Assembly: GCA_964429815.1 (NCBI GenBank)
Contig: CAYSCM010000001.1
Coordinates: 164,240 to 228,239 of the forward strand
Direction of reading: 5' to 3'
Origin: an uncultured Candidatus Saccharibacteria bacterium
GTDB taxonomy: Bacteria; Patescibacteriota; Minisyncoccia; Phycocordibacterales; CAYSCM01
DNA: 64,000 nt
Position numbers and translations under genes: made by a program. Of this stretch, positions 13,241 to 52,294 are shown in pieces. The notes under the pieces were generated by a model. That model had not been told where the DNA came from. It did not search any database and saw nothing but the letters and a program-made list of their open reading frames with translations. Within the stretch, counting starts at the first letter, position 1. The number at the start of each line of letters is the position of its first letter.

Positions 13241-13349
13241 GTGAGCCTCCACTCTGCAAAGAAAAATCTGAGTCAACTAATAGCACATCTTGGCAATTTT
13301 GTCAATAATCCCCTTGGTGCGACCCTCGAAGCGCGCTACGATTAGGAGA

Positions 13350-25407: not shown

Positions 25408-25934
25408 ATGAAGAAAACCAGCAAAAACAACAGCATGCCAAAGAAACGCGCCGCCCTATCGACCGGGCGCTCATTCGTAAACTTTTAACCGACGTACTGG
25501 AACGCCTCCAGATAACCGTTGAGGCGCTCGAGGAGATCGACCACCCGGCCCACCCCATTTTTTTGGTGAAGACACCCGATTCGGCGGTTCTCATAGGCAA
25601 CCGGGGAGAGAGCCTCCAAGCACTCAACTATCTCTTGCGAAAAATGGTCGAGCAAGAGGGTGACGGAGAGGGCATGGAGCAGTTTCTCGTCGACGTCAAT
25701 CACTACCAAAGCAAAAAAATAGACGAGCTGCGGCAAAAAGCGCTCATGCTCGCGGAGCGCGCTCGTCTCTTCAAGCACGACGTTGAAATGAGCCCCATGA
25801 GCGCCTACGAACGCATGATCGTGCACGCAACATTCGCCGATCATCCCGACGTCGGCACAGAATCGCAAGGCGAAGGAAAGTTCCGCCGCGTGGTCATCAA
25901 ATATAAGGGTTCAGGAAGCGGCGGAGGTACCTAA
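25404..25934 (+). CDS. jag: Jag/KhpB-like R3H RNA-binding protein
   Basis: C-terminal R3H region ERMIVHATFADHPDVGTESQGEGKFRRVVI. Position after yidC. Confidence 0.8.
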   Translation: MNEENQQKQQHAKETRRPIDRALIRKLLTDVLERLQITVEALEEIDHPAHPIFLVKTPDSAVLIGNRGESLQALNYLLRKMVEQEGDGEGMEQFLVDVNHYQSKKIDELRQKALMLAERARLFKHDVEMSPMSAYERMIVHATFADHPDVGTESQGEGKFRRVVIKYKGSGSGGGT

Positions 25935-27199
25935 CGGGCGCCCGTCGATGTGGCACTGTCGCTGAGCCTCACGCTCCAGAGTGAGAGATCTTTTTTGTTT
26001 TGAAAGAGAAGCTCGTCTTCGTTAGGTGAGAGCGAGAGATACTGCACGTCGAAGAGACGCGTGCCTTCACTGCTGAAGCGATAGAAGAGGGTTGAAGCAC
26101 CTGTTTGTGCGTCGATATGCCAAATGTTATCGGAGAAACTAGCTTGCCCCTGGTACCACAGGTCGGGATAGGTACCATTCGTATTTCCCGTAACTGCAAA
26201 CGGCACCGCACAGAGTATCTCCGTTGGTTTTTTGACGCTCCAGAGGCACTTGTCGGGGATGGTGGCGACGGCTGCATCGATGACTTTCCCTGTTCTAACG
26301 TTGAGGATATGCATAAGGATGGTAGAACCGATGGTCTCGCTCCACAGAATACGCTTGCCGTCCGCGCTCGGGAGAGCTGTGAGCCCCGAAATGTCGCCAA
26401 GGAGGCGCCCCACGGTGCCCGAGGAGGGATTCACGCTGTAAAGATAGCCCGGAGTGTTTCCGGAGGGTTTGGAGAGAAGAAGCGGGGTTCCTCCGAGCCA
26501 GTAGGGAAGCCACTCGGATATAGGCGAGGAAAAGAGCTTGGTGATTTTCCCGGTAGAAATGTTGTCGACGATGACCGAAGAACCCTGATTCTCCTTGCGG
26601 ATGTAGAGAAGCTGCTTTCCTTTGCTATCAGGTGCTACGGCGAGAATATTGTCTTCGAGATAGGTGCCGCCGAGCGACCCTCCGCCCCCGTTTGCGTTTA
26701 TACGGCCGAGGAACGTCTGTATGCGCTCGTCGCTCTCCGAGAGGAGACGCAAAAGCAAGATTATCGGGCTGTCGAGCCAGAGCGCCTGGTAGATCTTAGG
26801 TATAGTTGTATTGGTAACGCGCTTCGTCTCGCTATTTTCGAAGTTAGCTTCGTAGACGTTGCCATCTTCGCGTTCAATGTAGCGAATGAACTCGTTGCCA
26901 TTGGCGAGGAACGAGGCATACCCCGACACCGGCTTTCCGGATACCAGGTGCAGACGCGGTGATGTGCTGGCCTGCCCGGAGAGTTCTGCTCCGGTGTCAC
27001 CTCCTTGTGGAAAGGGCTCTCCCGAACCAGTGCCACCTTGCCCCGTTGGACTTTCAGAAATTTGTCCGAATATAGGCTGTTGAGCTTGCGATGAGCTCCT
27101 AGAACTCGCGGTTTTCCCTAAGAAATAATAGCTGCCAACCCCAAGTAGCACGAGGCCGAAGAAAAGTCCGAGAGTGATGTAGAGGGTCTTTCGTCTCAT
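25931..27199 (-). CDS. membrane-anchored beta-propeller (TolB/PD40-like) protein; last gene of the VirB4 locus
   Basis: N-terminal TM segment. Repeated PD40-like segments (SPDSKGKQLLYI, LPSADGKRILWS, LSLSPNEDELLF). Confidence 0.45.
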   Translation of the reverse strand: MRRKTLYITLGLFFGLVLLGVGSYYFLGKTASSRSSSQAQQPIFGQISESPTGQGGTGSGEPFPQGGDTGAELSGQASTSPRLHLVSGKPVSGYASFLANGNEFIRYIEREDGNVYEANFENSETKRVTNTTIPKIYQALWLDSPIILLLRLLSESDERIQTFLGRINANGGGGSLGGTYLEDNILAVAPDSKGKQLLYIRKENQGSSVIVDNISTGKITKLFSSPISEWLPYWLGGTPLLLSKPSGNTPGYLYSVNPSSGTVGRLLGDISGLTALPSADGKRILWSETIGSTILMHILNVRTGKVIDAAVATIPDKCLWSVKKPTEILCAVPFAVTGNTNGTYPDLWYQGQASFSDNIWHIDAQTGASTLFYRFSSEGTRLFDVQYLSLSPNEDELLFQNKKDLSLWSVRLSDSATSTGAR

Positions 27200-27200
27200 A

Positions 27201-28142
27201 TCAAAATCCTATAGCGCTGCACCTCGGTGCTTCTCCGAATCCCGGACAATATTGCTGGCAATCAGCGAGAGAGGAAAAGGCTACTTTCCCAGTCTCGATT
27301 CCCTTCCCCCAGGTGCAGAGTGTTTCCTGCGGGGCATTAAAAAGACTCTGTGGCTCTTGTGGCGGAGGTGGCAGGTTCGTCGTTTGTGATTGTAAAACGT
27401 CAGCCGACACCGCCGTGCATCTGCCCGAACAGGTTCGCTGGCACTCATCCATTGATGCAACATAGTAGCGTCGTCCTTGATATGAACCGTTATCTTCACG
27501 AAGTTCGCACGCCGCCTGAGAACTTATGCTAGTTGGAATCCCGTTTATAATCGGAGTCTTGTTTGGCTGGGTCGTTATTGTCGTCGGGCTCCCCGTCCCG
27601 GGCGTTGTGGATGGCCCGCCGAGGAGCGAATTATTTTTTACAATCTGCGGATTGATGGTGACGAGGAGTACGTAGGAGAGAAGGATGATAAGAAGGCCGT
27701 ATATCGCGGATTCAATGTAATCACGCCCACCCTCTTTCCCAAACGGCGTACTGCTCAGCATGTACTTGAAACCGCCAAAGGTAATCATAAGAACGGCGAG
27801 AAGCGCTGCGATGCCAAGGCCAAAATCAAAAATAGTATTGAGGACACTACTGAGACTCCCGTTGTTTTTTGTGTAAAGCCCTCCAATATTTTCAAGGGGG
27901 ACGAAACCTTGAGAGCCGGTTACTTGTGTTCCTAAGGGAGTAGTTTGTAAGGGGGAAGCGTCACCACATCCACCGGTTCCTTGTACATCAACGCAGGGTG
28001 TGCCCGATTGCGCTGGTTGAAGTGCAGAAGAACAATTTTCCGTATAGCCTCGAGAACAGGAGTCTCCAGATTCTGCCTTAGAAAAGGCAAACGGCAGCAT
28101 CAAAAGACAGAGAATGGAGATTATTATTTGTGACTTTCTCAT
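27201..28142 (-). CDS. T4SS-pilin-like (TrbC/VirB2-type) protein with a Cys-rich C-terminal extension
   Basis: Signal peptide, then LNTIFDFGLGIAALLAVLMITFGGFKYMLSSTPFGKEGGRDYIESAIYGLLIILLSYVLLVTINP (two-helix pilin core). Followed by about 130 aa with two Cys-containing modules. Confidence 0.6.
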   Translation of the reverse strand: MRKSQIIISILCLLMLPFAFSKAESGDSCSRGYTENCSSALQPAQSGTPCVDVQGTGGCGDASPLQTTPLGTQVTGSQGFVPLENIGGLYTKNNGSLSSVLNTIFDFGLGIAALLAVLMITFGGFKYMLSSTPFGKEGGRDYIESAIYGLLIILLSYVLLVTINPQIVKNNSLLGGPSTTPGTGSPTTITTQPNKTPIINGIPTSISSQAACELREDNGSYQGRRYYVASMDECQRTCSGRCTAVSADVLQSQTTNLPPPPQEPQSLFNAPQETLCTWGKGIETGKVAFSSLADCQQYCPGFGEAPRCSAIGF

Positions 28143-28143
28143 A

Positions 28144-29163
28144 TCATTTACCAAAGTTTATTTGAAGGGCTATCGATGTGGCCTGAAAAATTTGCGAAAC
28201 ATTTTGTAGCGAGAGAGCAAGATTTGCTGTGCCCGATGATGGGGCCGTCTGGCGCAGCACTACATCGGCCGGATTTTTACTCGAGGGAGTCACGCTCTTG
28301 TCATTGAGCGTCCAGGCGTAGGTGAGCGCTCCTCCGCCGCGGGAATCCGTCGAGAAAAAGTACGGGAAGGCGGAGACCGTCGCCTCGCTTTTAGTGAGAT
28401 TGACACTTTCAGGAAGTGCCCGGTCGAAACGAAATCCTAGAAGTGGGTCGTTTTCATAGAGGATGACGAATGGCTCGTCTCCGTTGAACGAGAGGGAACG
28501 AGTTGCTTTGATGGAACCATCCGAACTCGCTACGTCTACCGACACATTGATCCCGCGATAGACGCGGGCGCCGGGGATGGTAACGGACTGAGCGCCGCGC
28601 CCCGAAGAATCCCCCAGCACCTGGCCATTAAGGTGCCACGTGTAGAAAAGGGCCTCAGGCCTGATGCGCGCGCCGTTCTCGTCTACGAAAAACGGCATCG
28701 CAAAGAGGACCATCGTGGCGTCATAGGGAGCGAGAGCTTTACCGCGGTAAAAGGGCGGGGTGTAGACATTCGCTTGCCACAGCAGATCAAGGCCTGCCGG
28801 GCGAACGATGGCTGTTTTGGTAAGGGTCGAGCCATTGGGGAGTGTTGCGTTAACGCGAAGCACATTGATGCTTCCAATACCGCCAACCGTGAAGTGGGCC
28901 GTGACGACACCAACCCCTGAGTCAATGATCTTCCCGTTAAGGCTCCACACCAAGGTGGCGCGGGCAAGGTTTTCTGCGTAACTGGCGACCTGGGCCGATA
29001 CGGCTTGACCCGCTCCGGGTACCTCAGGCGAGAGGGAGAGCGAAAAATCTCCTGGCACGGTGGGCAAATTTAGCTGTGCAAAGAGCGTTGTAGGGAGCGA
29101 AAGGGCCGCGACGAGGAGTGTCGTCGCGCAGAGGCCGCGCATGATTCGGGGGGAAATAGTCAT
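28144..29163 (-). CDS. secreted beta-rich protein of unknown function
   Basis: Signal peptide MRGLCATTLLVAALSLPTTLFA. ATGA coupling with the upstream gene. Confidence 0.5.
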   Translation of the reverse strand: MTISPRIMRGLCATTLLVAALSLPTTLFAQLNLPTVPGDFSLSLSPEVPGAGQAVSAQVASYAENLARATLVWSLNGKIIDSGVGVVTAHFTVGGIGSINVLRVNATLPNGSTLTKTAIVRPAGLDLLWQANVYTPPFYRGKALAPYDATMVLFAMPFFVDENGARIRPEALFYTWHLNGQVLGDSSGRGAQSVTIPGARVYRGINVSVDVASSDGSIKATRSLSFNGDEPFVILYENDPLLGFRFDRALPESVNLTKSEATVSAFPYFFSTDSRGGGALTYAWTLNDKSVTPSSKNPADVVLRQTAPSSGTANLALSLQNVSQIFQATSIALQINFGK

Positions 29164-29777
29164 CAGGCTGCCTTCACTTTGGCTTGAGATTTATTATATT
29201 CCCTATCCTCCTGGTGAACGAGGCGGATTTCCGACCACACGCACATCGTCCATATAGGTATTGCATTTAACCCAGGCGCTAATTTAACCGCGATGAGAAT
29301 CAAATCTCGGATCGGGCGTTTTAGTGTCAAAAAGTTATGACCAGAAGTAGCAAACCATCCAATGAAAATAAAGAAAATCACGATCGACAAAACCGTGTTG
29401 ATGATGAGTCCAATGATGAGAAAGGTGAGAACAAGTTGGATAAGATCGAAAAACATCGCCACTCCCATCATGGCCGCATACTGAAGTCCTCCGATGCGGT
29501 GACGTTTTTTTGCGGGTACGGAAACGCGTTGGGCCGTCGCCACTTGAGCGGGCTCCCGTGGTGAAACCCGCGTATATCCCGATGGCTGCCGTTGCCAAAA
29601 CGCACGCTCTTGCGGGTCGAGTTCCTTACTCCCCATGCTCACCTTCGGGTTCCCGCCTATGCGAATGCCTCGCTTTACTCCTTCGGCTCGTAAGGCTTCG
29701 TATTCCTGTCGAGTCATGGAGGGATCCGCTCCAGCCGGAGGGGTCCACTTTTTTGATTGCGGGTCACGCGGAGGCAT
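29163..29777 (-). CDS. membrane protein (cytosolic N-terminal region, three C-terminal TM helices)
   Basis: Hydrophobic segments GLQYAAMMGVAMFFDLIQLVLTFLIIGLIINTVLSIVIFFIFIGWF. Confidence 0.5.
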   Translation of the reverse strand: MPPRDPQSKKWTPPAGADPSMTRQEYEALRAEGVKRGIRIGGNPKVSMGSKELDPQERAFWQRQPSGYTRVSPREPAQVATAQRVSVPAKKRHRIGGLQYAAMMGVAMFFDLIQLVLTFLIIGLIINTVLSIVIFFIFIGWFATSGHNFLTLKRPIRDLILIAVKLAPGLNAIPIWTMCVWSEIRLVHQEDREYNKSQAKVKAA

Positions 29778-29779
29778 GA

Positions 29780-31612
29780 CTATTTATTCGCCTCGGCCTC
29801 GAGCTCCTGGCGGGCCTTTTTAATAGCGAGAATTTGGCTCGGATCGGAGGTGATGATTTGATCTTCGGTATAAGAGGCGATGATTTTGATGGCGACGTGT
29901 TTGAGGCCGGCAAAGAATATCCCCTCTCCCACGTCCGATTCCAGGAGCAGGTACTTTTCCTCGTCGGTGAGGTTAAACGTTTTCTGCACGTTGTCGATGG
30001 AGGTTGGCGATTGCTTCAGCAGCAGCTGAATGGAGGAGTTGGTTATCATAGGGAGCCCGTAGGGAGAGTTCAAGAAATCAGAAACGTCTTGCGTGATGGT
30101 GGCAAGACCCAGGAAGTATTTGCGCCCGCGTTTGGCGACCGAAAAGAGGAAACTCGCCGTATCCTCGCTCTGCATCATCCAGTGCGCTTCATCGACGATA
30201 AAGAGGCGTTTCTTGAGCTCCTTGCGCACTGCGGTCCAGATGAAGTGCGTGACGATGTACATGGCGACGGGCTTGAGCTCATCCTCCATGTCGCGCACGG
30301 AGAATACGACAAAATTTTTGTTGATATCGACATTGGTCGGGCGATTGATGAAACCTGCCCACGTACCCTTGGTGTACTTGGAGAGGCGCTGCACGAGCGA
30401 CTCGGAGCCTTCCATTCCGGCGAGCACGAGCTCGAAGTCGGAGAGGAGCGGCGGCTCGATGCTGGTGAAGTCGCTCTCCCCCGTTATGTCCTTGAGCGCA
30501 TAGGTTTCCGTGATAGCCCGGTCGATGATGGAGTCTTCCTCCGGCGTTAGGCCGCCGAGCATGATGCGGAACAGGCCCACGAGATTCACGATGTTGCTTC
30601 GAAGCACGTCGCCGGGAGCTTCGTCTTCCCGCGGGGTCGGCAGGTCGAAGGGGTTGATGTGGTGCTCGGAGGTGAGGGATATGTTGAAGTAGCGCCCACC
30701 GACGGCGTCCGCCATGTACTCGTACTCACGCTCAGGGTCGATGACAATGACCTCGGTGCCGAACATAAGGGAGCGCAAAATTTCGAGCTTTACCGCGTAG
30801 GATTTGCCGGCGCCGGATTTTGCGAACGTCACCGAGTTGTAGTTTTCGAGGCTAAAGCGATCAAAGAGGATGAGGGAGCTGTTGTGGCGGTTGATGCCGT
30901 AGAGAATTCCCTTGTCGGAAGTGAGATCGAAGGAGACAAAGGGAAAGAGCGAGGAGAGCGGCGAGGAGTTGAGCTTCGTGTGCACGGAGAGCTCATCGGA
31001 GGCTATGGGAAGTACGGAGCGGAACCCCTGCTCCTGCTGAAAGAGCGCGGGCTTCACGTAGATGAGGCGGCTCTCGAGCATGGTCTTTATCTCGCTCTCC
31101 ACCTTGTCGAGCTCTTCCTGCGAGTTGCCATAGATAGAAATGTAAAGCCCGACATCGAAGAGTTTCTCTTGCGCCTGCTGGAGCTGGTCGCGGAGCGATT
31201 CAAGGTCACGATAGGCGGTGTCGAGCATTGGATCGCGCACGAGCCCGCGCTCCTCTCGGGTCGTGATCTGACTTTGCACCTCCGCGACCTTTTTTTGGAA
31301 TTTCCGAAGCACTGTAGCGGTGTCCGCCGGATGCACGAATATGGATACGTCGAAGACCCGATCGAGATTTATGATGGGAGCAAACCAGGAATCCGCGAGG
31401 TAGCGTGGGTAGGAAATAACAAATAGCGTGCGCACCAGCTTGTCGCCGAGATTCATCTCCCGCGGGGTGATCTTGAGCGCTGAAGGGGCGATGATGTCGT
31501 GGAACTCAAGCGCTCCCGCTTCATAGATTTCCTGCGGCAAAATGGGAGTGACCGGGACTTCCCTCCTCTTTTTCCCGCCCAAGCCTCCTGTGAGAAAATC
31601 AAGTAGAGCCAT
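29780..31612 (-). CDS. virB4: VirB4/TraC-family type IV secretion ATPase (C-terminal ATPase portion)
   Basis: Walker A FAKSGAGKSY, Walker B RLFIVDEAHWMM, ATITQDVSDF. Confidence 0.85.
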   Translation of the reverse strand: MALLDFLTGGLGGKKRREVPVTPILPQEIYEAGALEFHDIIAPSALKITPREMNLGDKLVRTLFVISYPRYLADSWFAPIINLDRVFDVSIFVHPADTATVLRKFQKKVAEVQSQITTREERGLVRDPMLDTAYRDLESLRDQLQQAQEKLFDVGLYISIYGNSQEELDKVESEIKTMLESRLIYVKPALFQQEQGFRSVLPIASDELSVHTKLNSSPLSSLFPFVSFDLTSDKGILYGINRHNSSLILFDRFSLENYNSVTFAKSGAGKSYAVKLEILRSLMFGTEVIVIDPEREYEYMADAVGGRYFNISLTSEHHINPFDLPTPREDEAPGDVLRSNIVNLVGLFRIMLGGLTPEEDSIIDRAITETYALKDITGESDFTSIEPPLLSDFELVLAGMEGSESLVQRLSKYTKGTWAGFINRPTNVDINKNFVVFSVRDMEDELKPVAMYIVTHFIWTAVRKELKKRLFIVDEAHWMMQSEDTASFLFSVAKRGRKYFLGLATITQDVSDFLNSPYGLPMITNSSIQLLLKQSPTSIDNVQKTFNLTDEEKYLLLESDVGEGIFFAGLKHVAIKIIASYTEDQIITSDPSQILAIKKARQELEAEANK

Positions 31613-31614
31613 AG

Positions 31615-32250
31615 CTATAGGTTCGCTGCGATCGGCTTTTCGAGCTCACCGGGGTTGAAGAGTTTGTAGTAAAGCTCGATGGCTTCCTCGGTGCCTAAGG
31701 TCGCGACCCTAACTCCGGTGCGCACGAGCCCTTGCTCGACGACCGCGACGCGTTGCTCAAGTTGGGTGCGGCTCTCTTCGAACGTCGCGGCGGCCTCCTC
31801 CTTCGTTTTTTTGCCGAAGCTCGGGAGCGTTGGGAGCCCGCTTTTTCCCACGGAGAGCACCGCCGGCGAGTACGGCACAACGATAAAGAAATTTTTCGTC
31901 ATAATGTTGGCCTGCTCGACGAAGCTTTTTATGAAATCAATGTACTCGCGTGTCTGGATTTTCATAAGCTCGGTGGTCTGCTCTTTGTACTTTCCCTCAA
32001 GGAGCGCCACGTAGGGGCGGATATCGAGCTGGCGTGATTCGATGAATATCTGGATGGAAAAGTCGAGCGAGTTGAGGAAGTTTTGGAACTGCGCGAGGAT
32101 GGCGGTCTGTTCGTCGGCGGATTTAAGCGCAAAATTGAGCGAGGAGGCGATGAGAATGGAGCGCAACCCTCCGTCCTTGAGGACCACGATGCCATCACGC
32201 ACCTCCTTGATGGGCACGAACTCCTGGCTTGCTTTTCCGGCGACGGCCAT
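31615..32250 (-). CDS. VirB4 N-terminal-domain-like protein (apparent split VirB4)
   Basis: FVPIKEVRDGIVVLKDGGLRSILIASSLNFALKSADEQTAILAQFQNFLNSLDFSIQIFI resembles the N-terminal domain of Gram-positive-type VirB4 proteins. Lies 2 nt upstream of the ATPase gene. Confidence 0.45.
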   Translation of the reverse strand: MAVAGKASQEFVPIKEVRDGIVVLKDGGLRSILIASSLNFALKSADEQTAILAQFQNFLNSLDFSIQIFIESRQLDIRPYVALLEGKYKEQTTELMKIQTREYIDFIKSFVEQANIMTKNFFIVVPYSPAVLSVGKSGLPTLPSFGKKTKEEAAATFEESRTQLEQRVAVVEQGLVRTGVRVATLGTEEAIELYYKLFNPGELEKPIAANL

Positions 32251-32256
32251 GGTGAT

Positions 32257-32670
32257 TTAGCGATAGGCGCCCGTTTTCTCCTTTATATCGAGGCTCCAGG
32301 CGAGATCCTTAAGTTTGCTCTCCGAGAGCTTAGGCACGACGATAGTCGCCTCCAGTTTCGTCTCCGGAGTGGCTTTTGCGGCGGCTTTGGGAACAACCTT
32401 TTTCCAGAGGTAGAGCCGGCCGCGCATCATGTAGTAGAAGGCCGCCTCGAGAGTCTCGATGAACGGACGATTATTTATCTTATAGAACGCAAGTGCAGCG
32501 GAAAGCGCGGCGACCGGAATACCAAGGAGTATCACGAGAAAAAGTGGCAGAAAAACGTAGAGAATGGCGATCACTCCTCCACCGCCGGCGAGGTAGACAA
32601 ACTGGCGGAACGTGAGGGGCCCCACTATCTTGTCTTCCACCTCAATGAACTGCGGCACCTGGAACTGCAT
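32257..32670 (-). CDS. PrgI-family (VirB3-like) membrane protein
   Basis: MQFQVPQFIEVEDKIVGPLTFRQFVYLAGGGGVIAILYVFLP. Internal ATG at 32670. Confidence 0.6.
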   Translation of the reverse strand: MQFQVPQFIEVEDKIVGPLTFRQFVYLAGGGGVIAILYVFLPLFLVILLGIPVAALSAALAFYKINNRPFIETLEAAFYYMMRGRLYLWKKVVPKAAAKATPETKLEATIVVPKLSESKLKDLAWSLDIKEKTGAYR

Positions 32671-32743
32671 AGAAGTAGTATACCCCGCGCAAAGCCGCAT
32701 CGCGGCTTTGCGCTGTAGATTCGGCGCGTACTACTATGAGTGC

Positions 32744-33034
32744 ATGAAATTCTATACGCCAAACTATGGAAACGCTTCACACGACGCCCGTCCGCAGTTT
32801 GAAATGCGCGGCAACGCCATCTACATCACCGCGCACCACCCCGGCTTTACCCCCAAAGGGGCGGTGCTCCCCTGGTATGAAAATAGGGGCGGGAAAGTCT
32901 ATGCGACCGAGCATCACCCCGAGGGCAAATCACTCCATCCGGTCTATGAAATCCGGGGCGATAGGGTGCACACTACGGTCGAACATTCTCAGCACGACCC
33001 ACTACGCCACAGCTTTGAACTCCGCCTGCATTAA
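32744..33034 (+). CDS. 96-aa His-rich protein made of three ~28-aa repeats
   Basis: PQFEMRGNAIYITAHHPG / PWYENRGGKVYATEHHPEG / PVYEIRGDRVHTTVEHSQHD. The only plus-strand gene inside the locus. Confidence 0.45.
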   Translation: MKFYTPNYGNASHDARPQFEMRGNAIYITAHHPGFTPKGAVLPWYENRGGKVYATEHHPEGKSLHPVYEIRGDRVHTTVEHSQHDPLRHSFELRLH

Positions 33035-33042
33035 AGCGAGTT

Positions 33043-33441
33043 CTATTTTTTTCGATATACAAATACTGACTTTATGCCGATGATGATCAGACTGATCAAG
33101 AAGAAAAGTATCGAGAGGAAGAACGAAATCCGCCCCTTGTCATTCGGAAACATCCAGTCAGTGCTGGTATTTGGCGCGATAAGTATCAACGCCACGGAGA
33201 TTGCAAGAAACCACTGGGCAAAGCGGATCCACATTCGGAAAATTTCATCTCGGAGTTTATAGGTGACTAAACTCAAGATGAACAAAATTGGAAAAAACCT
33301 AAGTAAATCAATCAACCACAAAGTCTGATCTCTACAGAAAAAAAATTTATCTTGACATCCATTACGAAGCACGAGGCTGAGAAGGATAAGAAACATTCCC
33401 GCGCCTATTCCGGAAAAAATTAAAAGAGTTTTTTTGGTCAT
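33043..33441 (-). CDS. small 4-TM membrane protein
   Basis: Four hydrophobic helices. AT-richer codon usage than the flanking genes. Confidence 0.5.
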   Translation of the reverse strand: MTKKTLLIFSGIGAGMFLILLSLVLRNGCQDKFFFCRDQTLWLIDLLRFFPILFILSLVTYKLRDEIFRMWIRFAQWFLAISVALILIAPNTSTDWMFPNDKGRISFFLSILFFLISLIIIGIKSVFVYRKK

Positions 33442-33443
33442 AA

Positions 33444-36440: not shown

Positions 36441-36496
36441 CCGGGAAGCCTACCATTGTCCCGCTTAGAGTCAATGCATACCGTGGCGTGCATTGA

Positions 36497-36534
36497 ATAC
36501 TCAAATTATAAGCTATAGCTTATAATTTGAGTAT
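36497..36534. repeat. 38-nt perfect AT-rich palindrome, copy 2
   Basis: atactcaaattataagcta|tagcttataatttgagtat. Differs from copy 1 by C>A in the left arm and the mirror G>T in the right arm. Confidence 0.85.
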
Positions 36535-36590
36535 GGTGTTTTTCTGCTGCACACCGCTCTGAGCCTACAACGACATCTGGTCGGGTCTGA

Positions 36591-37493
36591 TTAGGAGAGG
36601 GGTTCGCGGTAGGGGTCGACTTTTGGCTTTTCAGGACCTGCGGAGGCGGAGGGGCCTATCGGTGGCACGATTTTTTTCTCCTGCATCGGGGAGCGCACCT
36701 GGCTTTGGAGCTTCGCCGCGGTGAAGTCTTGTCCAAAAGTGCGAAGTGGGGGAAGTGAGCTTTCCTGCACCGGCGCTCCCACCACCGGCCCTCTATTAAT
36801 AGAGGGGGTCGGGGCAGGTTGCGGTGCGACCAGAGATGTGGCTTTTGTCGGAGCTGAGGAGACCGAGGCCGGACGGACGGGAATTTCTGGCGTCTTTTGA
36901 AGAGCAGCTATCGCGTCGGCGAGAGCTTCTCTGCCGCCGGGCGCCGTCGAGGGGCGCGCAGGAATTGAACTCGAAAGTGGAGGTTTTGTCTGGGGAGGGG
37001 GCGGGGCTTGCCTTGGTACTTGCTCCCCAGGTGGCCTTTGTGGTTGCGGGGTTTGCGTCGCGGGTTGCGGTCGTGGTGTTTGTTGGGGTGCGGCTCCTCC
37101 TTCCCCACCGCGGGCATGTGCGAAGGGGGCGGATTGAAGGGAGGGCGTTATATCTCCTTTGAGAGGAGTTTGTTTTGAGGGTTCCTCGGTAATTTTTTTA
37201 AGAGAGTCGCGAATGGGTTTAAAAATCTGTTCATTAACATCCAGAACAACCGAGCCGACTTTTTCTACAGGAAAACCACGTTTTCGAAGTTCATCTGGTA
37301 GTACCTCAGCCTTAATTTCTCCAAGAATGACTAGCGTGATTACATCACTAAGAAGACCAACCTTATCAATGAGTAGCGCCTGTTTCCTACCAATGGCTTG
37401 AATAGCTTCTGTTACTTTCTCAGAAAAAAGAACGTCTTGGAGTTCTGAAGGAAGTTGGAATATCCGTCTTATTTTTTGCTTAGTATCGATCAT
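36591..37493 (-). CDS. protein with a globular N-terminal domain and a long Pro-rich tail
   Basis: 300 aa, no TM segment. A PQ/PP-rich segment fills the C-terminal two thirds. Confidence 0.5.
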   Translation of the reverse strand: MIDTKQKIRRIFQLPSELQDVLFSEKVTEAIQAIGRKQALLIDKVGLLSDVITLVILGEIKAEVLPDELRKRGFPVEKVGSVVLDVNEQIFKPIRDSLKKITEEPSKQTPLKGDITPSLQSAPFAHARGGEGGAAPQQTPRPQPATQTPQPQRPPGEQVPRQAPPPPQTKPPLSSSIPARPSTAPGGREALADAIAALQKTPEIPVRPASVSSAPTKATSLVAPQPAPTPSINRGPVVGAPVQESSLPPLRTFGQDFTAAKLQSQVRSPMQEKKIVPPIGPSASAGPEKPKVDPYREPLS

Positions 37494-37498
37494 ACTTC

Positions 37499-39943
37499 TT
37501 ATGGAATCCTACCGAGAGTGTGGAAGAGACGTCCCCCTTGGCTATTTCCAAAGTTTGCTAGCGCAAGTATGGCAGGATCGGTCGCACCCGCGTTTCGGCG
37601 ATTAATTACTTCTTGCATAATGGCATTACCAGCACCCACATCAGCGCCTGCTTTCATCATTTCTCGAAGCGCTTCTTGTTTTAGGTGAGGAACAAGCTCG
37701 GGAAGGAGGGTGGCTCTCGTACTTGAATCGTCATAGAGACCCAGCGCCATTTTGGCCATTGCCTTGGGATCAACCCGCAACTTCTTAATATCCGTACCAA
37801 AGGTTCCAATCGCTCCATGGCCCAGAGACTCTTTAAGGAAATCCCCTCGCTGTTTACCAAGTGCCGCTTTAATACTGGCGGCGATCTTGTCGCTTTTCAT
37901 AACCTCGTCGTATTTATCCTGGGACAGTGTCCTCGCCAAGGTGTCGATTTGTCCAGCGAGGGCCTTTTCAGTAATTATGAGCTCGAGCTCTTTATTGTTT
38001 ACCTTGTCGAATTTCTTTATTAACTCCTCGTCTTCCGCTGAAAGATGGCCAGGAATTGCGGCCGCTGCCGCACGTGCAGCATTTTCCAGAAGTTCTTTGT
38101 GACGAGCGGTGGTTACTTTATCGCGCATTTCGTCGGTGTACTTATCATTTTTCACATCAGATATGGATAGATACTGTGAAGAGGTAAGATTCTTCGCTAC
38201 CCAGTCTTTTGTCAAAGTCTTCACCCCCAAAGAGGCCAGCTGCGTATCACTCATCGCACCAAGAGCTCGAAGACCTTTTGCTTCAGCTTCTTGTTTTTGT
38301 GCGTCTGTGTATTTTGTTGGATTCTCACTGATCTCAATCGCGCGCTCAATGTCGTCGCGGAAGTCTGCCTCCCTGCGTACCGCAGCACGCCCGAGCTTTT
38401 CCTTCTTAACCTCTTCCTTGATCGCGACTCCTGATTTAGTCGTTCCAAACTTAGCACCTGCAATTAGGCCGGTGGTGTACTTGCGGGCAAGGGAACCCAA
38501 CTGGGTCCCACCAATAAGGCGTGACTGAGCGAGCCTTTGATCAAGGTTCGCAATGGGCCTGCCAATTGCATTGCGGGCCAGGAAGCCACCGCCGTATTTG
38601 CCGATAGATTTTACAGTAAAGTTGATTGCATTCAGGCCTTCATTGCCAATTTTTTTTGCAACCGATAGGGTTAGAAGTGATAATCCAATAACAACTGCAA
38701 AGTTTATTAGCAATTGGATTGATCCGGGGGCAGTAGCCGCCGAGCTTCCGTCCGCTAGGTCCGCAAACGTTCCATTACCAATAGCGGTTTGAAATGCTGG
38801 ATTTTTCATTACACCCAACACGAACCACAATAATCCAAAGTAGGCCGGTAGCATTATCGCATTTGACCAAAGCGCCCCCCACCACTGGTTCCATAGTCCA
38901 CCGAAGAAGGGTAAAAAACGAGCAAGCACAGCTAACGGAGAGGTGACCATTAGCACAAGGAATACAATAATTCGCCCAATTATATGTAAAGCAGCGATGA
39001 GGAATGAATAGGCAAGGATTATAAAGAGAATGCAGCCAAGCATACTCAAAAGAAAACTATTGCCATTACTGAGCAGGGCGGCCGCCCTACTGCCGGTGAA
39101 GTTTTTCAAATCATATAAAGACCCCATCCGTAAAACTTGCATAAACTGTCCCGATAGCCCGACATCCGAGTTTAGAAATTGATCAGTCTGCCCCTTCGCA
39201 AGTAACTGAGTGTAGAACTGTGTTGAAATATAATTACTTGCATCGATTACGACCCTTGTTAGAGCGAAGCTAAAATTTATCAGTAACGCCGCTATTACCA
39301 CGTTCGCCAAAAGTTTTTTTGCCCCGTATTGTTGTACCCGCAATATGGTGGAAATGCCGATAATCAAAAGGCTGAAAATAAGAACAATATTCGCCACATC
39401 ACGAATGGTCATCCAAAATCCGTCGAGAGTACCGAAGGTCTTTATTGTTGTTCCAAAGTCAAGAACACCCCACACCACCACCTTGTTCAAGAAGAACCCG
39501 GCAACTCCCAGAATCCAAGCAAACAAGGTTAGGAATGCGTACCCAATACATCCGATGGAAATATCAGGAATAAAGCCGACGTACGGGTCACAGTTGGGTG
39601 GCTTACTTCGTATATCGTCACCCTTTTTCTTTGAGGCATCGGCTGCTTGTGTATCGGTACTTTCCCTTACGTCTGCATCACTCACAGCGTCACCCTTTAC
39701 GGTAATTAAGGAACCATCGGCCGCACGATAAAAATACGGATCAGTTATGTTTTTCCCTGGGCCAAGCAATGTATAGGTCTTTCCATTCCAAGTGCAAGCT
39801 GGGGGGTAGTTGTTTGCGCCAGTGGCTGTGCAAAGAGGGTCCGCGGCGAGAGCAACTTCTGTATGTAGTGAAAAGCCATACCCAACCACAAAAGACTTTA
39901 AGATGAAAATTGTGAGTAGTAATGTTGAAACAGCTTTTCTCAT
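37499..39943 (-). CDS. 814-aa polytopic membrane protein (VirB6/TrbL-like channel candidate) with a long helical C-terminal domain
   Basis: Signal peptide, Cys-containing ectodomain, about 8 TM helices, then about 370 aa of charged helical region. ATGA coupling with the upstream gene. Confidence 0.4.
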   Translation of the reverse strand: MRKAVSTLLLTIFILKSFVVGYGFSLHTEVALAADPLCTATGANNYPPACTWNGKTYTLLGPGKNITDPYFYRAADGSLITVKGDAVSDADVRESTDTQAADASKKKGDDIRSKPPNCDPYVGFIPDISIGCIGYAFLTLFAWILGVAGFFLNKVVVWGVLDFGTTIKTFGTLDGFWMTIRDVANIVLIFSLLIIGISTILRVQQYGAKKLLANVVIAALLINFSFALTRVVIDASNYISTQFYTQLLAKGQTDQFLNSDVGLSGQFMQVLRMGSLYDLKNFTGSRAAALLSNGNSFLLSMLGCILFIILAYSFLIAALHIIGRIIVFLVLMVTSPLAVLARFLPFFGGLWNQWWGALWSNAIMLPAYFGLLWFVLGVMKNPAFQTAIGNGTFADLADGSSAATAPGSIQLLINFAVVIGLSLLTLSVAKKIGNEGLNAINFTVKSIGKYGGGFLARNAIGRPIANLDQRLAQSRLIGGTQLGSLARKYTTGLIAGAKFGTTKSGVAIKEEVKKEKLGRAAVRREADFRDDIERAIEISENPTKYTDAQKQEAEAKGLRALGAMSDTQLASLGVKTLTKDWVAKNLTSSQYLSISDVKNDKYTDEMRDKVTTARHKELLENAARAAAAAIPGHLSAEDEELIKKFDKVNNKELELIITEKALAGQIDTLARTLSQDKYDEVMKSDKIAASIKAALGKQRGDFLKESLGHGAIGTFGTDIKKLRVDPKAMAKMALGLYDDSSTRATLLPELVPHLKQEALREMMKAGADVGAGNAIMQEVINRRNAGATDPAILALANFGNSQGGRLFHTLGRIP

Positions 39944-41601
39944 ATCGTTTGTTGTTGCGGGAAGGCGTAGCAGGCATCGAGCCTCTGCAAGGCGTCCTGA
40001 ATGAGCGGATTTATTTCGGCGAGCATGTCGGACTGCTCTTGCTGCGCTGTTGCGATATCGGCATCGGAGGGGAGCGCGCCGGAGGATGTGAGTGCAGTGA
40101 ACTGGGCCGAAGCGGCATCGAGCTCGTCGGGAGAAGTTGCATTCTGTATCTGGGATTCAAGTTGATACGCCTGGTTGATAGCACCCTGTGTTTTGGCGAT
40201 TTGAGCCGAGAGAGCCACCTTCTTGGTCGTGACGAGGCTCGCCTGCGTCGTCGAGGCGGCGAGAATGCTTCGCTGCGCCGTCGCTAGGTCGGTGGAGCTG
40301 AGGGAAGAGCTGGCAATTTTGTTCCGGTAACAGTCAATGAGGCTCCCGAAATCGCTGTCGGCGATGAGCACTTGGTTTAGCGTCGCCTGCTTGACGCTTA
40401 TGTACTGCTGGGCTTTAGCGATCGAGACATCGACGAGCGAGAGACCCGCACTTTGACGCCCCGAAATTTCTGCTGATTGCGCGTTGGCGACGTAGACGTC
40501 AAGTGCGGTACCGCCGCCAAACTGGCCGTTTTGCGTCGAGAGACCCTTGACGCCGCCGAGCGCGAGAAGGCCTTGCTTGATGAGCTGTCCGACGAGCGCG
40601 GAGATGATGGAGTTTATGTCATTGGCGAGCTCGAGCTGGTCTATATCGGTGCCTAGGACTTTTGAGAGCTGATCTTGTATCGCCGCTCCCGGGGTGACGA
40701 TGGTGCAATTTGCTTTCGGGTCCGTTTTATAAGGATCTTGTCCAGGATAGTAGGTCGTGAAGGTGCCGCCGGTGCCGCTTGTTCCGTCGCTGTAGGTGGT
40801 TATAGGTGATTGGCTGCTGCACTGTTTGAACGAGAAGAAGCCGCGGCCGAACTCAAGAAGCTTCGTGTTGGTGTACTGCGCGCTCGCGATACGCACGGAG
40901 AGCTCGCTCTGTGCCATGAGGTAGGAGCCATAGGGATTGTTTTGCGGATTGGTTGTCATCGCAAACCACGCGGGCCAACCGCCGGCAGCAAAATTCGTGA
41001 ACGCACTGTTGACGTTTCCGACGACGCTTGAGAGTGTGCAGCGCGCTTTGTTTTGGTACGGTTGGAAATTAAGCGCGAGCGCGACGCGCACCTGGAGCTG
41101 AAAGGGGGAACACAGGAATGAGAGTTCGGAGCCGTAAATAAATTCTCCTATCACCTGGTCGGCGACGTTGGTGAGGAATCCTTGAAGGTCGGTGACGAAG
41201 GCGGGATTCCCCTGAAAGCCGTTGTTTATCCAATTGACGATGCTTCTGGTGAGCTGCGCAAGGAGCGTCTTGGCGATGAGGATGATGATGGGCTTAATAA
41301 CACAGTCATGAATGGTCGCGCTTTCGGTCGCGCCCTGGATGCCACCGCTCGCGATATGGAGATACTTGTCTACGGCTGGGACATCAGCAGCTTGAAGTCC
41401 TATAGAACTGACCCCCGTTGCCTTGCCCTGAATAAGGGAGCTTAGGCAGAAAGCCGTATCGGGGCCGGCGGGAGTCTGAGCACTCGCCCTCTGGGGGAAG
41501 AAAGAAATAGCGGCAGCCCATGGCGCCAGAAGCACGACGAGGAGGAGCCCGGCGATTTGCCTTTGCATTGAGCCACGGATTGTAGAAATAAGCCCCCTCA
41601 T
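39940..41601 (-). CDS. 553-aa secreted protein of unknown function
   Basis: Signal peptide ...LLLVVLLAPWAAAISFFPQRASA. The C-terminal third is Ala/Gln-rich and helical. ATGA coupling. Confidence 0.5.
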   Translation of the reverse strand: MRGLISTIRGSMQRQIAGLLLVVLLAPWAAAISFFPQRASAQTPAGPDTAFCLSSLIQGKATGVSSIGLQAADVPAVDKYLHIASGGIQGATESATIHDCVIKPIIILIAKTLLAQLTRSIVNWINNGFQGNPAFVTDLQGFLTNVADQVIGEFIYGSELSFLCSPFQLQVRVALALNFQPYQNKARCTLSSVVGNVNSAFTNFAAGGWPAWFAMTTNPQNNPYGSYLMAQSELSVRIASAQYTNTKLLEFGRGFFSFKQCSSQSPITTYSDGTSGTGGTFTTYYPGQDPYKTDPKANCTIVTPGAAIQDQLSKVLGTDIDQLELANDINSIISALVGQLIKQGLLALGGVKGLSTQNGQFGGGTALDVYVANAQSAEISGRQSAGLSLVDVSIAKAQQYISVKQATLNQVLIADSDFGSLIDCYRNKIASSSLSSTDLATAQRSILAASTTQASLVTTKKVALSAQIAKTQGAINQAYQLESQIQNATSPDELDAASAQFTALTSSGALPSDADIATAQQEQSDMLAEINPLIQDALQRLDACYAFPQQQTI

Positions 41602-42566
41602 GAAGAAAGCGTAAGCTTGAGGTTATTCACGAGCATAAAGCTTCCTAGGGTGCGGAAGGACTGGTTGAGCGCGGCTTCTCGCGCCTCATAGCCGCTCATG
41701 GCGACGAAGGCGACGAGAGGGTCGGTCGCGATGGTCTCGAGGTCGGCGAGCGTTGCCTTCATGCCCGAGAGAGCGTTGAGGAGTCCCACATGTGCCGAAA
41801 GTGCGTCGCGCGGAACGTTCATCGACACGAGCGCGCGGATACTTTCCCCATAGAGCGCGACGTCGTGCTTGTAGGTCATCATCCCGTTTGGATCTTGACC
41901 GCTGATGGCATTCTGGAGCGTGAGAAGCTCGTACTCTTTGATGGAAAGGACCGGTGCGAGCGCGGCGCTGAGGGCACGGTTGTATGCGGCAAGCGTCGAC
42001 GATGAGGTGCCGGTGACGGAAACGTCGCCGGCTGCGTACACCGTTGGTTTGGTCGCGACGTTGCCGCTTGCGGCTACGGCATTGACGACCGCCTGCTCAT
42101 CCTCGGGGGTGAGCGTCTGGCCGCCCTGCTTTTTGCTCAAATAATTTTTGAACAGATTGATGGCAAGCGCGTCGGTGTTGCTGAGGCCATTGCCGGGGGC
42201 GGTACGAGCGGTAAGGTCGAGCGTCGATCCTGGAGACGTGACAGACGGACTTTTTCCCTCCCCCGGTGTGAGAGGGTCGCGGCCCTGCGCGACTTCCTGT
42301 CCGTCGGAGACCCCGTCGCCGTCGGTGTCGGGATTGTGCGGATCGGTGCCGCGGAGTTGTTCTTCCCAGTCGGGAAGGCCGTCCCCGTCACTGTCCTTAC
42401 TTGCCGACGCTATAAGAGCGCTACTTATAGCATCTTCCGAGCTCGCAAGTGAGGGGGAGGATGGGGTTTTTGGTTGTAGGAGCGTGAAAAAGGCGACTAA
42501 GGCGACGAAAAGAGCCACCACAATGAAAACAAGTACCAGCCCTCTGCTTGGTAGCCACTTGTACAC
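41598..42566 (-). CDS. membrane-anchored protein with thrombospondin type-3-like Ca-binding repeats; first gene of the locus
   Basis: TM anchor LVLVFIVVALFVALVAFFTLL. DSDGDGLPDWEE...DTDGDGVSDGQE. Confidence 0.55.
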   Translation of the reverse strand: MYKWLPSRGLVLVFIVVALFVALVAFFTLLQPKTPSSPSLASSEDAISSALIASASKDSDGDGLPDWEEQLRGTDPHNPDTDGDGVSDGQEVAQGRDPLTPGEGKSPSVTSPGSTLDLTARTAPGNGLSNTDALAINLFKNYLSKKQGGQTLTPEDEQAVVNAVAASGNVATKPTVYAAGDVSVTGTSSSTLAAYNRALSAALAPVLSIKEYELLTLQNAISGQDPNGMMTYKHDVALYGESIRALVSMNVPRDALSAHVGLLNALSGMKATLADLETIATDPLVAFVAMSGYEAREAALNQSFRTLGSFMLVNNLKLTLSS

Positions 42567-42638
42567 ACCTTAAGTATAAGCGCCGACCCTGTAATCCCTC
42601 GCTATTTTGCTGTGAATACCGGCGCACGTTCCACAGGA

Positions 42639-52289: not shown

Positions 52290-52294
52290 GGAAA

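Follow-up and report, generated by a model that had tools for sequence, protein, structure and literature searches.

Within a 64,000-nucleotide stretch of DNA from an uncultured Candidatus Saccharibacteria bacterium (assembly GCA_964429815.1, contig CAYSCM010000001.1, positions 164,240 to 228,239; hereafter the window), 13 open reading frames (ORFs) of the minus strand fill the interval 25931-42566 and appear to encode a type IV secretion system (T4SS). Numbered g1 to g13 in the order of transcription (Table 1), they include a VirB4 ATPase (g8 and g9), a PrgI/VirB3-like protein (g7), a VirB2-type pilin (g12), a VirB6-like candidate (g3) and a lipase gene accompanied by its membrane partner (g5 and g6). 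The ORFs are closely packed: g1/g2 and g2/g3 overlap by 4 bp, g10/g11 by 1 bp and g11/g12 by 11 bp, and the remaining gaps mostly measure 1 to 6 bp, apart from two bigger spacers of 150 bp (g4-g5) and 342 bp (g6-g7). An earlier sequence-only reading of this DNA had placed the limits of the cluster and of its ORFs at the same positions and had described a tight packing with ATGA overlaps, which agrees with the ORF coordinates and the 4-bp overlaps. It had also announced 14 genes, all on the minus strand, but its list holds 13, and the fourteenth gene, called here orfX and located in the g6-g7 spacer, lies on the plus strand. We consider with good confidence, taking the three points jointly, that the locus is a chromosomal T4SS of the Patescibacteria clade, that it is not a mobile element and that the lipase pair is an insertion.

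Profile searches in Pfam and NCBIfam recognised the motor and the parts next to it. The g9 protein belongs to the CD1110 family of VirB4 (NCBIfam NF045971, 1.3e-111, 374 bits for a cut-off of 325), aligns with positions 184-733 of the 752 in this profile, also matches P-loop_TraG of Pfam (6.1e-22) and has kept its NTP-binding motifs intact, with a Walker A-like AKSGAGKS and a Walker B LFIVDE. The g8 protein matches TrsD (NCBIfam NF041427, 5.7e-7) and the N-region of VirB4_plasma (1.1e-8), both under the full-length cut-offs of NCBIfam, and covers positions 104-233 of VirB4_plasma and 2-118 of CD1110; its orthologue in the closest relative bears the TraC-like family PF26593. Because g8 supplies the first ~180 profile positions that are missing from g9, the VirB4 motor is split over two genes, as in the plasmid pGO1. 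The g7 protein matches PrgI (Pfam PF12666, 2e-11, 44.7 bits for a cut-off of 27), and only the TrsD-like gene stands between it and virB4. Translation of g7 probably begins at the internal ATG at 32670, which gives a protein of 137 aa with the N-terminus MQFQVPQF, as in the relatives; 137 aa is also the length of the orthologue in the closest relative. Finally, g12 matches T4SS_pilin (Pfam PF18895, 1.6e-6, 28.5 bits for a cut-off of 26.6), and its family consensus matches both this profile (7.1e-10, 39.3 bits) and TrbC/VirB2 (8e-5). The pilin core of g12, at residues ~100-165, contains two transmembrane (TM) helices and lies within Cys-rich N- and C-terminal extensions. Among its orthologues, which range from 125 to 483 aa (e.g., L016:13718-15169, L015:13882-15306 and L020:15062-16363), conservation is confined to the ~65-aa pilin core, with a query coverage of 21-77%; one orthologue has a weak CHAP match. 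Extensions of this type would decorate the surface of the pilus if both termini were exposed, as in F-type pili. The calls of a VirB4 ATPase, a VirB4 N-domain, a PrgI/VirB3 protein and a pilin made by the sequence-only reading are thus borne out, and so is its view that the recognisable parts are of Gram-positive type: judged by these matches, the locus type is derived from the monoderm conjugation machinery of mating-pair formation (MPF) type FATA.

Table 1. Positions of the T4SS cluster genes and of the neighbouring features in the window.
Feature	Position	Strand	Description
PilB/T2SSE-type ATPase gene	13290-15020	+	ordinary conserved gene
dnaA	22664-24049	-	downstream anchor (Pfam)
yidC	24679-25407	+	downstream anchor (Pfam)
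jag/khpB	25404-25934	+	downstream anchor (Pfam)
g13	25931-27199	-	422 aa, N-terminal anchor, probable beta-propeller; last core gene, convergent with jag
g12	27201-28154	-	317 aa, VirB2-type pilin core with extensions
g11	28144-29163	-	339 aa, secreted, Ig/PKD-like beta-sandwich repeats
g10	29163-29777	-	204 aa, charged N-terminal region, ~3 TM helices (hydropathy)
g9	29780-31612	-	610 aa, VirB4 ATPase, C-terminal motor part
g8	31615-32250	-	TrsD-like, VirB4 N-domain equivalent
g7	32257-32700	-	PrgI/VirB3-like small membrane protein
orfX	32744-33034	+	96 aa; divergent from PrgI
g6	33043-33441	-	132 aa, 4-TM; lipase partner
g5	33444-36440	-	998 aa, LCAT-family alpha/beta hydrolase, surface or secreted
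palindrome	36497-36534		38 bp, within the g4-g5 spacer
g4	36591-37493	-	300 aa, Pro/Ala/Gln-rich tail
g3	37499-39943	-	814 aa, VirB6-like polytopic membrane protein
g2	39940-41601	-	553 aa, secreted (signal-like N-terminus)
g1	41598-42566	-	322 aa, TSP3 protein; first gene of the conserved core
ORF between g1 and ksgA	42612-43142	+	167-176 aa, no Pfam match
ksgA/rsmA	43154-43933	-	upstream anchor (Pfam RrnaAD, 6.5e-53)
uvrD/pcrA	43935-45869	-	upstream anchor (Pfam UvrD-helicase, 3.6e-85)
896-aa ORF	46205-48895	-	no Pfam match
LysM-M23 gene	49269-50186	+	two LysM domains and Peptidase_M23
comM	50745-52319	-	ordinary conserved gene
PNPase gene	53732-55918	-	ordinary conserved gene
XerC/D-like gene	57982-58893		tyrosine recombinase

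The relatives of the locus were taken from species-representative genomes: 579 of 600 candidate stretches encode VirB4 relatives, and the locus comparisons given here concern the best 80 of these 579. They come from Kaiser-, Campbell-, Taylor-, Nomura-, Adler- and Wolfebacteria and from other metagenome-assembled genomes of Paceibacteria/Parcubacteria, some of them labelled "Saccharibacteria" automatically, and the titles of these 80 loci support the assignment of the source organism to the Patescibacteria of class Paceibacteria. This placement comes from the relatives, since a look-up of the exact VirB4 sequence found no record and that of g2 no more than a Logan contig. The same order recurs among them: uvrD-ksgA-g1-g2-g3-g4-PrgI-TrsD-VirB4-g10-g11-pilin-g13, then the convergent pair jag-yidC, then dnaA. 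The conserved core comprises 11 genes (g1-g4 and g7-g13), whose order and strand are kept in all 34 loci that have the eight best-detected core genes; in the closest relative (L090/L091), which has a g2 57% identical to that of the window, all eleven core genes and orfX are retained. The dnaA-yidC-jag flank is found in 40-58 related loci and the ksgA-uvrD flank in 32-47, and 39 loci present both ksgA and yidC, at a distance of 11.7-18.1 kb from each other. Comparing synteny across Patescibacteria, a check proposed by the sequence-only reading, therefore finds the same core, order and flanks in dozens of Paceibacteria species.

The proteins of the core have diverged to very different extents. 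VirB4 (g9) is 78-86% identical across 79-80 species, with a median of 80%, which suggests that g9 is a member of the Patescibacteria VirB4 clade. Median identities are 65% for TrsD (g8, 79 loci), 54% for PrgI (g7, 76 loci), 59% for DnaA and 27-37% for the envelope proteins. In the same loci the identities of the flanking proteins range between 55 and 64% for DnaA, 48 and 65% for UvrD and 38 and 53% for YidC, versus 78-86% for VirB4. That VirB4 is more conserved than DnaA argues for a strong purifying selection on the motor. With a motor more constrained than the replication initiator and with fast-evolving exposed parts, the locus has, at the level of its sequences, the profile of an old, vertically inherited and functionally important system. 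A functionless remnant of an ancient conjugative system, integrated and now decaying, would fit with the missing coupling protein, relaxase, VirB8 and VirB1. We find this scenario scarcely credible, since the 13 ORFs are all intact, with overlapping stops and starts that suggest translational coupling, the Walker motifs of VirB4 are intact and its 78-86% identity across at least 79 species exceeds that of DnaA, and in a saccharibacterium the homologues of these genes are essential (PMC10633639).

The composition of the surroundings was studied by a scan of ~45 larger ORFs across the 64-kb window. In these ORFs, we found neither a coupling ATPase of VirD4/FtsK type (T4SS-DNA_transf, TraG-D_C, FtsK_SpoIIIE), nor a relaxase, MobA/MobL, a Rep_trans domain or a primase. 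The span free of relaxase and coupling protein thus extends 21-26 kb on either side of the cluster, and the absence of both noted by the sequence-only reading holds within the window. An ordinary conjugative element, that is, an integrative and conjugative element (ICE) or an integrated plasmid with borders, relaxase and coupling protein that are situated beyond the window or too diverged to be recognised, would be consistent with the fact that the VirB4, PrgI and TrsD families were typed on conjugative plasmids and ICEs, and with the presence of a tyrosine recombinase gene and of tRNA genes at 62.7-64 kb. However, this recombinase, the sole member of the integrase family in the window, is XerC/D-like and ~15 kb away from the cluster, with housekeeping genes in between. 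Relaxase, type IV coupling protein (T4CP) and primase were not found in the 64 kb, repeats flanking the cluster were not seen and, apart from the g5-g6 insert, its composition is not unusual. More generally, only 109 relaxases were counted in 3,035 Patescibacteria genomes (PMC12102498). In place of the borders of an ICE, the cluster is directly bounded by ksgA-uvrD on one side and jag-yidC-dnaA on the other, an arrangement kept in 39 loci, and none of the 80 best VirB4 loci lacks it. Because the same core, order and flanks recur in dozens of Paceibacteria species, the locus is, on these comparisons, a vertically inherited chromosomal machine and not an ICE. The sequence-only reading had indicated that a relaxase, a coupling protein and ICE borders immediately outside the window would make it an ordinary conjugative element; with the ksgA-uvrD and jag-yidC-dnaA flanks found in 39 other species, we regard a conjugative element as very unlikely.

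Besides the recognised parts, the conserved core includes six proteins (g1, g2, g4, g10, g11 and g13), which are anchored, membrane-embedded or provided with a signal-like N-terminus. The first one, g1, presents two bacterial TSP3 (calcium-binding) repeats (Pfam TSP3_bac, 2.8e-13), one N-terminal hydrophobic segment and a helical C-terminal domain; its orthologues in 43 related loci have a median identity of 27% and come first in the cluster every time. The g2 gene is always directly upstream of the VirB6-like gene and encodes a Cys-containing conserved N-domain, in which W124, G128-F129, P133, C164 and C188 are invariant or nearly so, followed by a C-terminal elongated helical bundle, which is confidently predicted. 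A VirB5-like tip protein was considered for g2, the lead being its site upstream of VirB6 and a match of 3 out of 35 orthologues with DUF4141 (Bacteroides TraI), a domain that marks a protein encoded beside TraJ/VirB6 in conjugative transposons of Bacteroides (PMC10434189). This candidate was unsupported: Foldseek gave no PDB match with an E-value below 0.08, hhalign to TrwJ gave 0.4%, the consensus had no Pfam match and tblastn against plasmids found no match; nor did these comparisons reveal a specific resemblance of g2 to another T4SS protein. Searches of PDB with sequence profiles returned, for g2 as for g3, low-complexity or coiled-coil noise only. The g4 protein combines a conserved N-terminal helical domain with a Pro/Ala/Gln-rich low-complexity tail; neither the protein nor its consensus had a family match in profile searches, and its orthologues, found in 41 loci with a median identity of 30%, are always located between g3 and PrgI. 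The g10 protein had no family match either and gave less than 1% in hhalign against PrgF, PrgG, TrsC, VirB3 and VirB2. It is poorly conserved, with detectable orthologues in just 14 loci, and its slot is elsewhere occupied by ORFs of 115-223 aa or, in some loci, by a gap of 440-620 bp.

The two remaining proteins of this group, g11 and g13, are found in 72 and 60 loci, with median identities of 32% and 30%, respectively. Among 42 orthologues of g11, 10 match BiPBP_C and 3 match Ig_3, and the consensus matches Ig_3 (1.2e-5), PKD_3 (5.6e-5) and, weakly, T4 Hoc. A relationship of g11 with the Pam pilus (10.64898/2026.03.03.709456) was set aside from the description of this pilus, whose operon lies beside ATP synthase genes and mainly in other classes. 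For g13, the family profile matches TolB in PDB (5e-4), and the matches with PD40 and DPPIV_N are under the cut-off; the ectodomain is probably a beta-propeller, all three signals being weak. The TSP3-repeat protein and the secreted beta-rich protein (g11) proposed by the sequence-only reading are accordingly confirmed, the first by Pfam and the second by the Ig/PKD-like repeats of the consensus profiles; its TolB-like beta-propeller finds a TolB profile match, but the PD40 and DPPIV_N signals stay below cut-off. None of the six proteins has a counterpart in pCF10, pGO1 or R388 that would be detectable by hmmsearch or hhalign, two comparisons of low sensitivity: in the first, which searched 44 reference Prg, Pcf, Trs, Trw and Tn916 proteins with family profiles, even the g7 profile missed the PrgI of pCF10, so that its negatives carry little weight, and in the second the PrgI positive control reached only 11%.

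Several points weigh against the reading of this locus as a T4SS of the Patescibacteria clade close to the replication origin, and the first ones concern g3. This protein is composed of a signal or anchor, an outside segment of ~100 aa, ~6-7 TM helices and a C-terminal alpha-helical repeat domain of ~300 aa. The g3 protein of the window itself has no Pfam match; its consensus aligns with positions 25-213 of the 215 in TrbL (3.7e-4), with 20.8 bits that are under the cut-off of 25.9; and its Foldseek E-values are ~0.1-0.4, with an unrelated axoneme chain at overall rank 1. On the other side, 3 of 37 g3 orthologues match TrbL/VirB6 (PF04610, best 1.1e-6), and several g3 homologues carry in databases a precomputed PF04610 or PF19590. 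In the AlphaFold2 model, the pLDDT exceeds 90 over most of the TM region (residues 130-435), and the top membrane-protein matches of this model in PDB are TrwI/VirB6 from R388 (7o3v_J, prob 0.98, TMt 0.47, E ~0.2). In hhalign, g3 gave 36.9% to TrwI and 34.1% to TrsL from pGO1, all other references giving 1.6% or less, and the match of g3 with TrsL (3e-5) was also the sole standout when the family profiles were compared with the 44 references by hmmsearch. The VirB6-like candidate of the sequence-only reading stands in this sense: the orthologue, consensus, Foldseek and hhalign signals agree, but g3 itself matches no Pfam family. We accept g3 as an extended VirB6-like protein on these four weak and consistent lines, none of which passes a curated threshold.

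The other points belonging here concern the completeness of the machine and its position. No protein of the cluster resembling VirB8 (PrgL, TrwG) or VirB1 (PrgK, TrsG, TrwN) was found by Pfam, NCBIfam, hmmsearch and hhalign, the latter two being the low-sensitivity tests described above. A coupling protein or a relaxase could be encoded elsewhere in the genome, beyond the 64-kb window. The places proposed below for the six additional core proteins in the architecture are deduced from signal peptides, anchors and folds. As for the origin, 11 DnaA boxes were found where 7.3 are expected, which is not an enrichment, and the GC skew between 18000 and 32000 tracks the coding strand (C-rich) with no replication switch. 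Because of this, the origin is not locatable from composition, and it is dnaA and dnaN only that suggest a proximity to oriC.

The gene pair g5-g6 constitutes a different case from the core. The g5 protein matches LCAT (Pfam PF02450, 2.5e-12, 47.2 bits for a cut-off of 21) over profile positions 68-388 of 392, contains an MBG_2 domain (Pfam, 2.1e-15) and a C-terminal PxKF (NCBIfam, 4.3e-28), and starts with a hydrophobic signal-like segment. With its nucleophile elbow AHSNG intact at residue 361, it is credibly predicted to be an acyl hydrolase or transferase of LCAT type, and the three profile matches substantiate the lipase-like exoprotein of 998 aa listed by the sequence-only reading. Its own N-terminal signal-like segment suggests that g5 is probably exported by Sec rather than by the T4SS. 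The family exceeds 1,386 homologues, many of which come from sources named Patescibacteria, and the closest ones, 49-50% identical, occur in unrelated chromosomal contexts: near ftsK and rplJ, near dnaE and rnhB, or near glycogen and type IV pilus genes. The g6 protein has four hydrophobic segments and its gene a GC content of 0.39. Small 4-TM ORFs of 116-148 aa lie directly 3' of three g5 homologues (L082:10998-11348, L084:11059-11505 and L085:10947-11375) and present 28-36% identity to g6, with pairwise E-values from 1e-4 to 1e-7. By these similarities, the lipase and its membrane partner form a conserved module in Patescibacteria, in which g5 and g6 travel together.

In the 82 related T4SS loci examined, which include the 80 best VirB4 loci and the closest relative, no homologue of g5 or g6 was found. 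The g4-PrgI spacer is variable between species, and in the closest relative a gene of 123 aa matching 23S_rRNA_IVP stands at the site of g5-g6, between g4 and orfX. No direct repeats were found flanking the insert, and the GC content at third codon positions of g5 (0.49, versus 0.66-0.75 in g7-g9) is similar to that of g3, g4 and g12, so that composition does not single out g5. Being absent from the related T4SS loci and having homologues paired elsewhere in chromosomes, g5-g6 is a self-contained module and, on this comparison, a lineage-specific insertion in the variable g4-PrgI spacer rather than a part of the T4SS core. The alternative is a lipase dedicated to the T4SS, as an associated effector or as a lipid-harvesting enzyme, co-transcribed with the other genes and acting at the contact site of the pilus. 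The pair does sit within the operon, between g4 and PrgI, and is read in the same direction, g5 combines an intact AHSNG elbow with MBG_2 and PxKF domains of surface type, and Patescibacteria lack fatty-acid synthesis (PMC10633639). However, neither the 80 related T4SS loci nor the closest relative have the pair, the nearest g5 homologues have no T4SS linkage, g5 possesses its own hydrophobic N-terminal signal-like segment, the 150-bp spacer with its palindrome sets g5 apart from g4, and the g4-PrgI spacer varies between species. We regard a dedicated lipase as improbable. The hint of lipid transfer given by the sequence-only reading rested on the 998-aa lipase and loses most of its basis, since g5-g6 is an insertion absent from 82 related loci and g5 has its own signal-like segment.

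Two features accompany this insertion. On its upstream edge, in the g4-g5 spacer, sits a perfect, AT-rich and loopless palindrome of 38 bp (19+19), with the halves ATACTCAAATTATAAGCTA and TAGCTTATAATTTGAGTAT, which could be a bidirectional terminator, an operator or a mark of the insertion edge. On the other side, the closest relative has, in the position and orientation of orfX, an ORF (L091:13619-13909, minus strand) that is 66% identical to it (E 2e-47), and because of this conservation orfX is considered as a real gene by sequence comparison. The orfX protein had no Pfam or PDB match, orfX is absent from L001-L089, and the protein contains three internal repeats of the form P-x-(F/Y)-E-x-R-G-x-x-(I/V)-(Y/H)-x-T-x-x-H.

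The larger ORFs of the window are housekeeping genes or have no family match. The cluster ends 1.9 kb from dnaA and begins 0.6 kb from ksgA. One side includes a Mur ligase (murD-like), a SpoU methylase, holA, polA, the pilB-type ATPase and ruvA/B/C and, further on this same side as dnaA, an aminoacyl-tRNA synthetase, PBP1, dnaN, dnaA, yidC and jag. The other side includes ksgA, uvrD, the 896-aa ORF, the LysM-M23 peptidase, comM and PNPase and, further, an NYN protein, the XerC/D-like recombinase, an ExoIII-like nuclease and the CCA enzyme. The 896-aa ORF lies between uvrD and the LysM-M23 gene; in the closest relative it is absent and uvrD adjoins LysM-M23 directly, which makes it a second lineage-specific insertion near the T4SS locus. 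The LysM-M23 gene is 6.7 kb upstream of the cluster, a position kept in the closest relative, and its product is a candidate substitute for the missing wall hydrolase of VirB1 type. Between ksgA and g1, on the opposite strand, there is another ORF; the closest relative has in this slot an ORF of similar size and same orientation (L090:6787-7311), a likeness of position and size alone, and in most other loci the slot measures just 30-200 bp.

T4SSs of this kind have already been described. Using transposon sequencing, Wang et al. 2023 (Cell) showed that T4SS genes, including those of pilins, are essential for the epibiotic growth of Southlakia epibionticum, and that the composition of the system is Gram-positive-like, with no coupling or relaxase proteins (PMC10633639). 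Quinonero-Coronel et al. 2025 (Microb Genom) detected VirB4 in 2,417 of 3,035 genomes, mostly in one clade nested in MPF-FATA, and found near it TrsD, PrgI/VirB3, VirB6 and VirB2-like pilins, with relaxases almost absent; in Paceibacteria they located the T4SS cluster near dnaA, dnaN and ksgA (PMC12102498). A 2025 review lists the systems of Patescibacteria as a distinct type of T4SS (PMC12857230). The locus thus belongs to a known kind, the Patescibacteria-clade T4SS, whose position near dnaA/ksgA, missing relaxase and proposed repurposing are all published. What is new here is the g5-g6 insertion, orfX and the six conserved core proteins with no detectable counterpart in pCF10, pGO1 and R388; the main text of those papers names neither the lipase insertion nor a fixed Paceibacteria core made of g2, g4, g10 and the proteins with TSP3 repeats, Ig repeats and a beta-propeller.

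With the Patescibacteria-clade system, for which we use as reference SEML1_0006-0019 of S. epibionticum, the locus shares a VirB4 probably nested in MPF-FATA, a TrsD-like protein, PrgI/VirB3, a VirB2-like pilin and, with g3, a candidate for VirB6, the absence of a nearby relaxase or T4CP, the chromosomal position beside dnaA/dnaN and ksgA known in Paceibacteria, and a monoderm architecture without VirB7, VirB9 and VirB10. It differs by a single pilin with long Cys-rich extensions instead of a tandem pilin array, by the absence of a peptidase or lysozyme directly downstream of virB4, the LysM-M23 gene being found upstream instead, and by the inserted LCAT/PxKF lipase and 4-TM module. Among the plasmid systems, those of pGO1/pIP501 type (MPF-FATA) offer in pGO1 the order trsC-trsD-trsE (VirB3-like, TrsD, VirB4) of g7-g8-g9, together with TrsL of the TrbL/VirB6 family (hhalign 34% to g3) and the small CagC/VirB2-like TrsB. 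Unlike the locus, pGO1 is a mobile plasmid that encodes a VirD4-like TrsK, a relaxase, the CHAP hydrolase TrsG and a topoisomerase, and it has no detectable counterparts of g1, g2, g4, g10, g11 and g13. The Prg/Pcf system of pCF10 (E. faecalis) likewise has a gene of the PrgI family immediately before that of a VirB4 of the CD1110 family, but its VirB4 is full-length and unsplit, it includes the hydrolase PrgK, the VirB8-like PrgL, the T4CP PcfC, a relaxase and the adhesin PrgB, and it has no pilin. Finally, the VirB-type system of R388 (MPF-T) has in common with the locus a VirB2-type pilin and a candidate VirB6-like channel protein (among membrane proteins, its TrwI/VirB6 is the best structural match of the g3 model), whereas the outer-membrane core (VirB7, VirB9, VirB10), VirB11 and VirD4 are absent from the locus, in which VirB5 and VirB8 are undetectable.

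A mechanism can be proposed, whose steps we infer from established T4SS biology; the locus itself contributes the parts list, their conservation and the chromosomal, non-mobile nature of the system. The VirB4 hexamer (g8+g9) would dock on PrgI and VirB6 at the membrane and energise the extraction of the VirB2-like pilin and its polymerisation into a pilus or tube. The TSP3 protein g1, the helical bundle g2, the Ig-repeat protein g11 and the beta-propeller g13 would build wall-spanning or distal, host-contacting parts, and would take the roles that VirB8, VirB1 and adhesins play in plasmid systems. Such a machine would serve a contact-dependent exchange with the host cell, by protein export or by uptake of host macromolecules, and not conjugation. 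We lean towards this non-conjugative function in exchange with the host. The sequence-only reading had proposed an apparatus repurposed for host contact or for effector or lipid transfer: its host-contact and effector part is the published interpretation (PMC10633639, PMC12102498, PMC12857230), but its lipid part is not supported, g5-g6 being an insertion.

A variant of this exchange would work inward, the pilus or tube allowing a nucleotide-auxotrophic epibiont to take up nucleic acids or other macromolecules of its host in the manner of ComB or Ced. The uptake T4SSs ComB of H. pylori and Ced of archaea are likewise devoid of relaxase and coupling protein, as is the locus, where neither T4CP nor relaxase was found. 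The window also contains comM, PNPase, the pilB-type ATPase and uvrD. However, these nucleic-acid genes are ordinary housekeeping genes that neighbour the locus within a conserved origin-proximal gene order, so that their proximity need not be functional. T4SS loci of ABY1 co-localise with comF, recG and radA (PMC12102498, which also mentions Ced). More recently, a 2026 preprint described the feeding of a patescibacterium on host RNA, with tubes resembling T4SS pili at the contact site, and tied VirB4 to macromolecule transfer (10.64898/2026.06.21.733656). Against this, deletion of comEC in S. epibionticum abolished competence and not viability (PMC12857230), and because this deletion is viable the essential role of the T4SS is not a DNA uptake coupled to ComEC; furthermore, direct evidence of import is absent for any T4SS of Patescibacteria. 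Import thus appears to us doubtful, as a minor option within the non-conjugative exchange.

Two further readings would be more novel, and we hold them jointly to be unlikely: that the lipase module was captured into the operon, and that the six additional core proteins form an extracellular module specific to Paceibacteria. If the first were true, a lipase co-expressed with the pilus apparatus would cleave or transacylate the membrane lipids of the host at the contact site, giving a direct genetic link between the T4SS of Patescibacteria and lipid scavenging. If the second were true, the module (g1, g2, g4, g10, g11 and g13) would have no counterpart in any characterised T4SS. As it stands, the lipase insertion indicates that cargo is tolerated in the g4-PrgI spacer, and is a weak lead to lipid acquisition, no more.

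The T4SS of Patescibacteria is the first for which an essential role in its own bacterium has been reported. The locus described here leaves that picture unchanged and adds to it a clean and well-anchored example from Paceibacteria, with an explicit core of 11 genes, an order fixed across dozens of species and a motor more conserved than DnaA. Its six orphan core proteins provide a list of targets for work on structure and genetics in those few Paceibacteria that can be cultivated.

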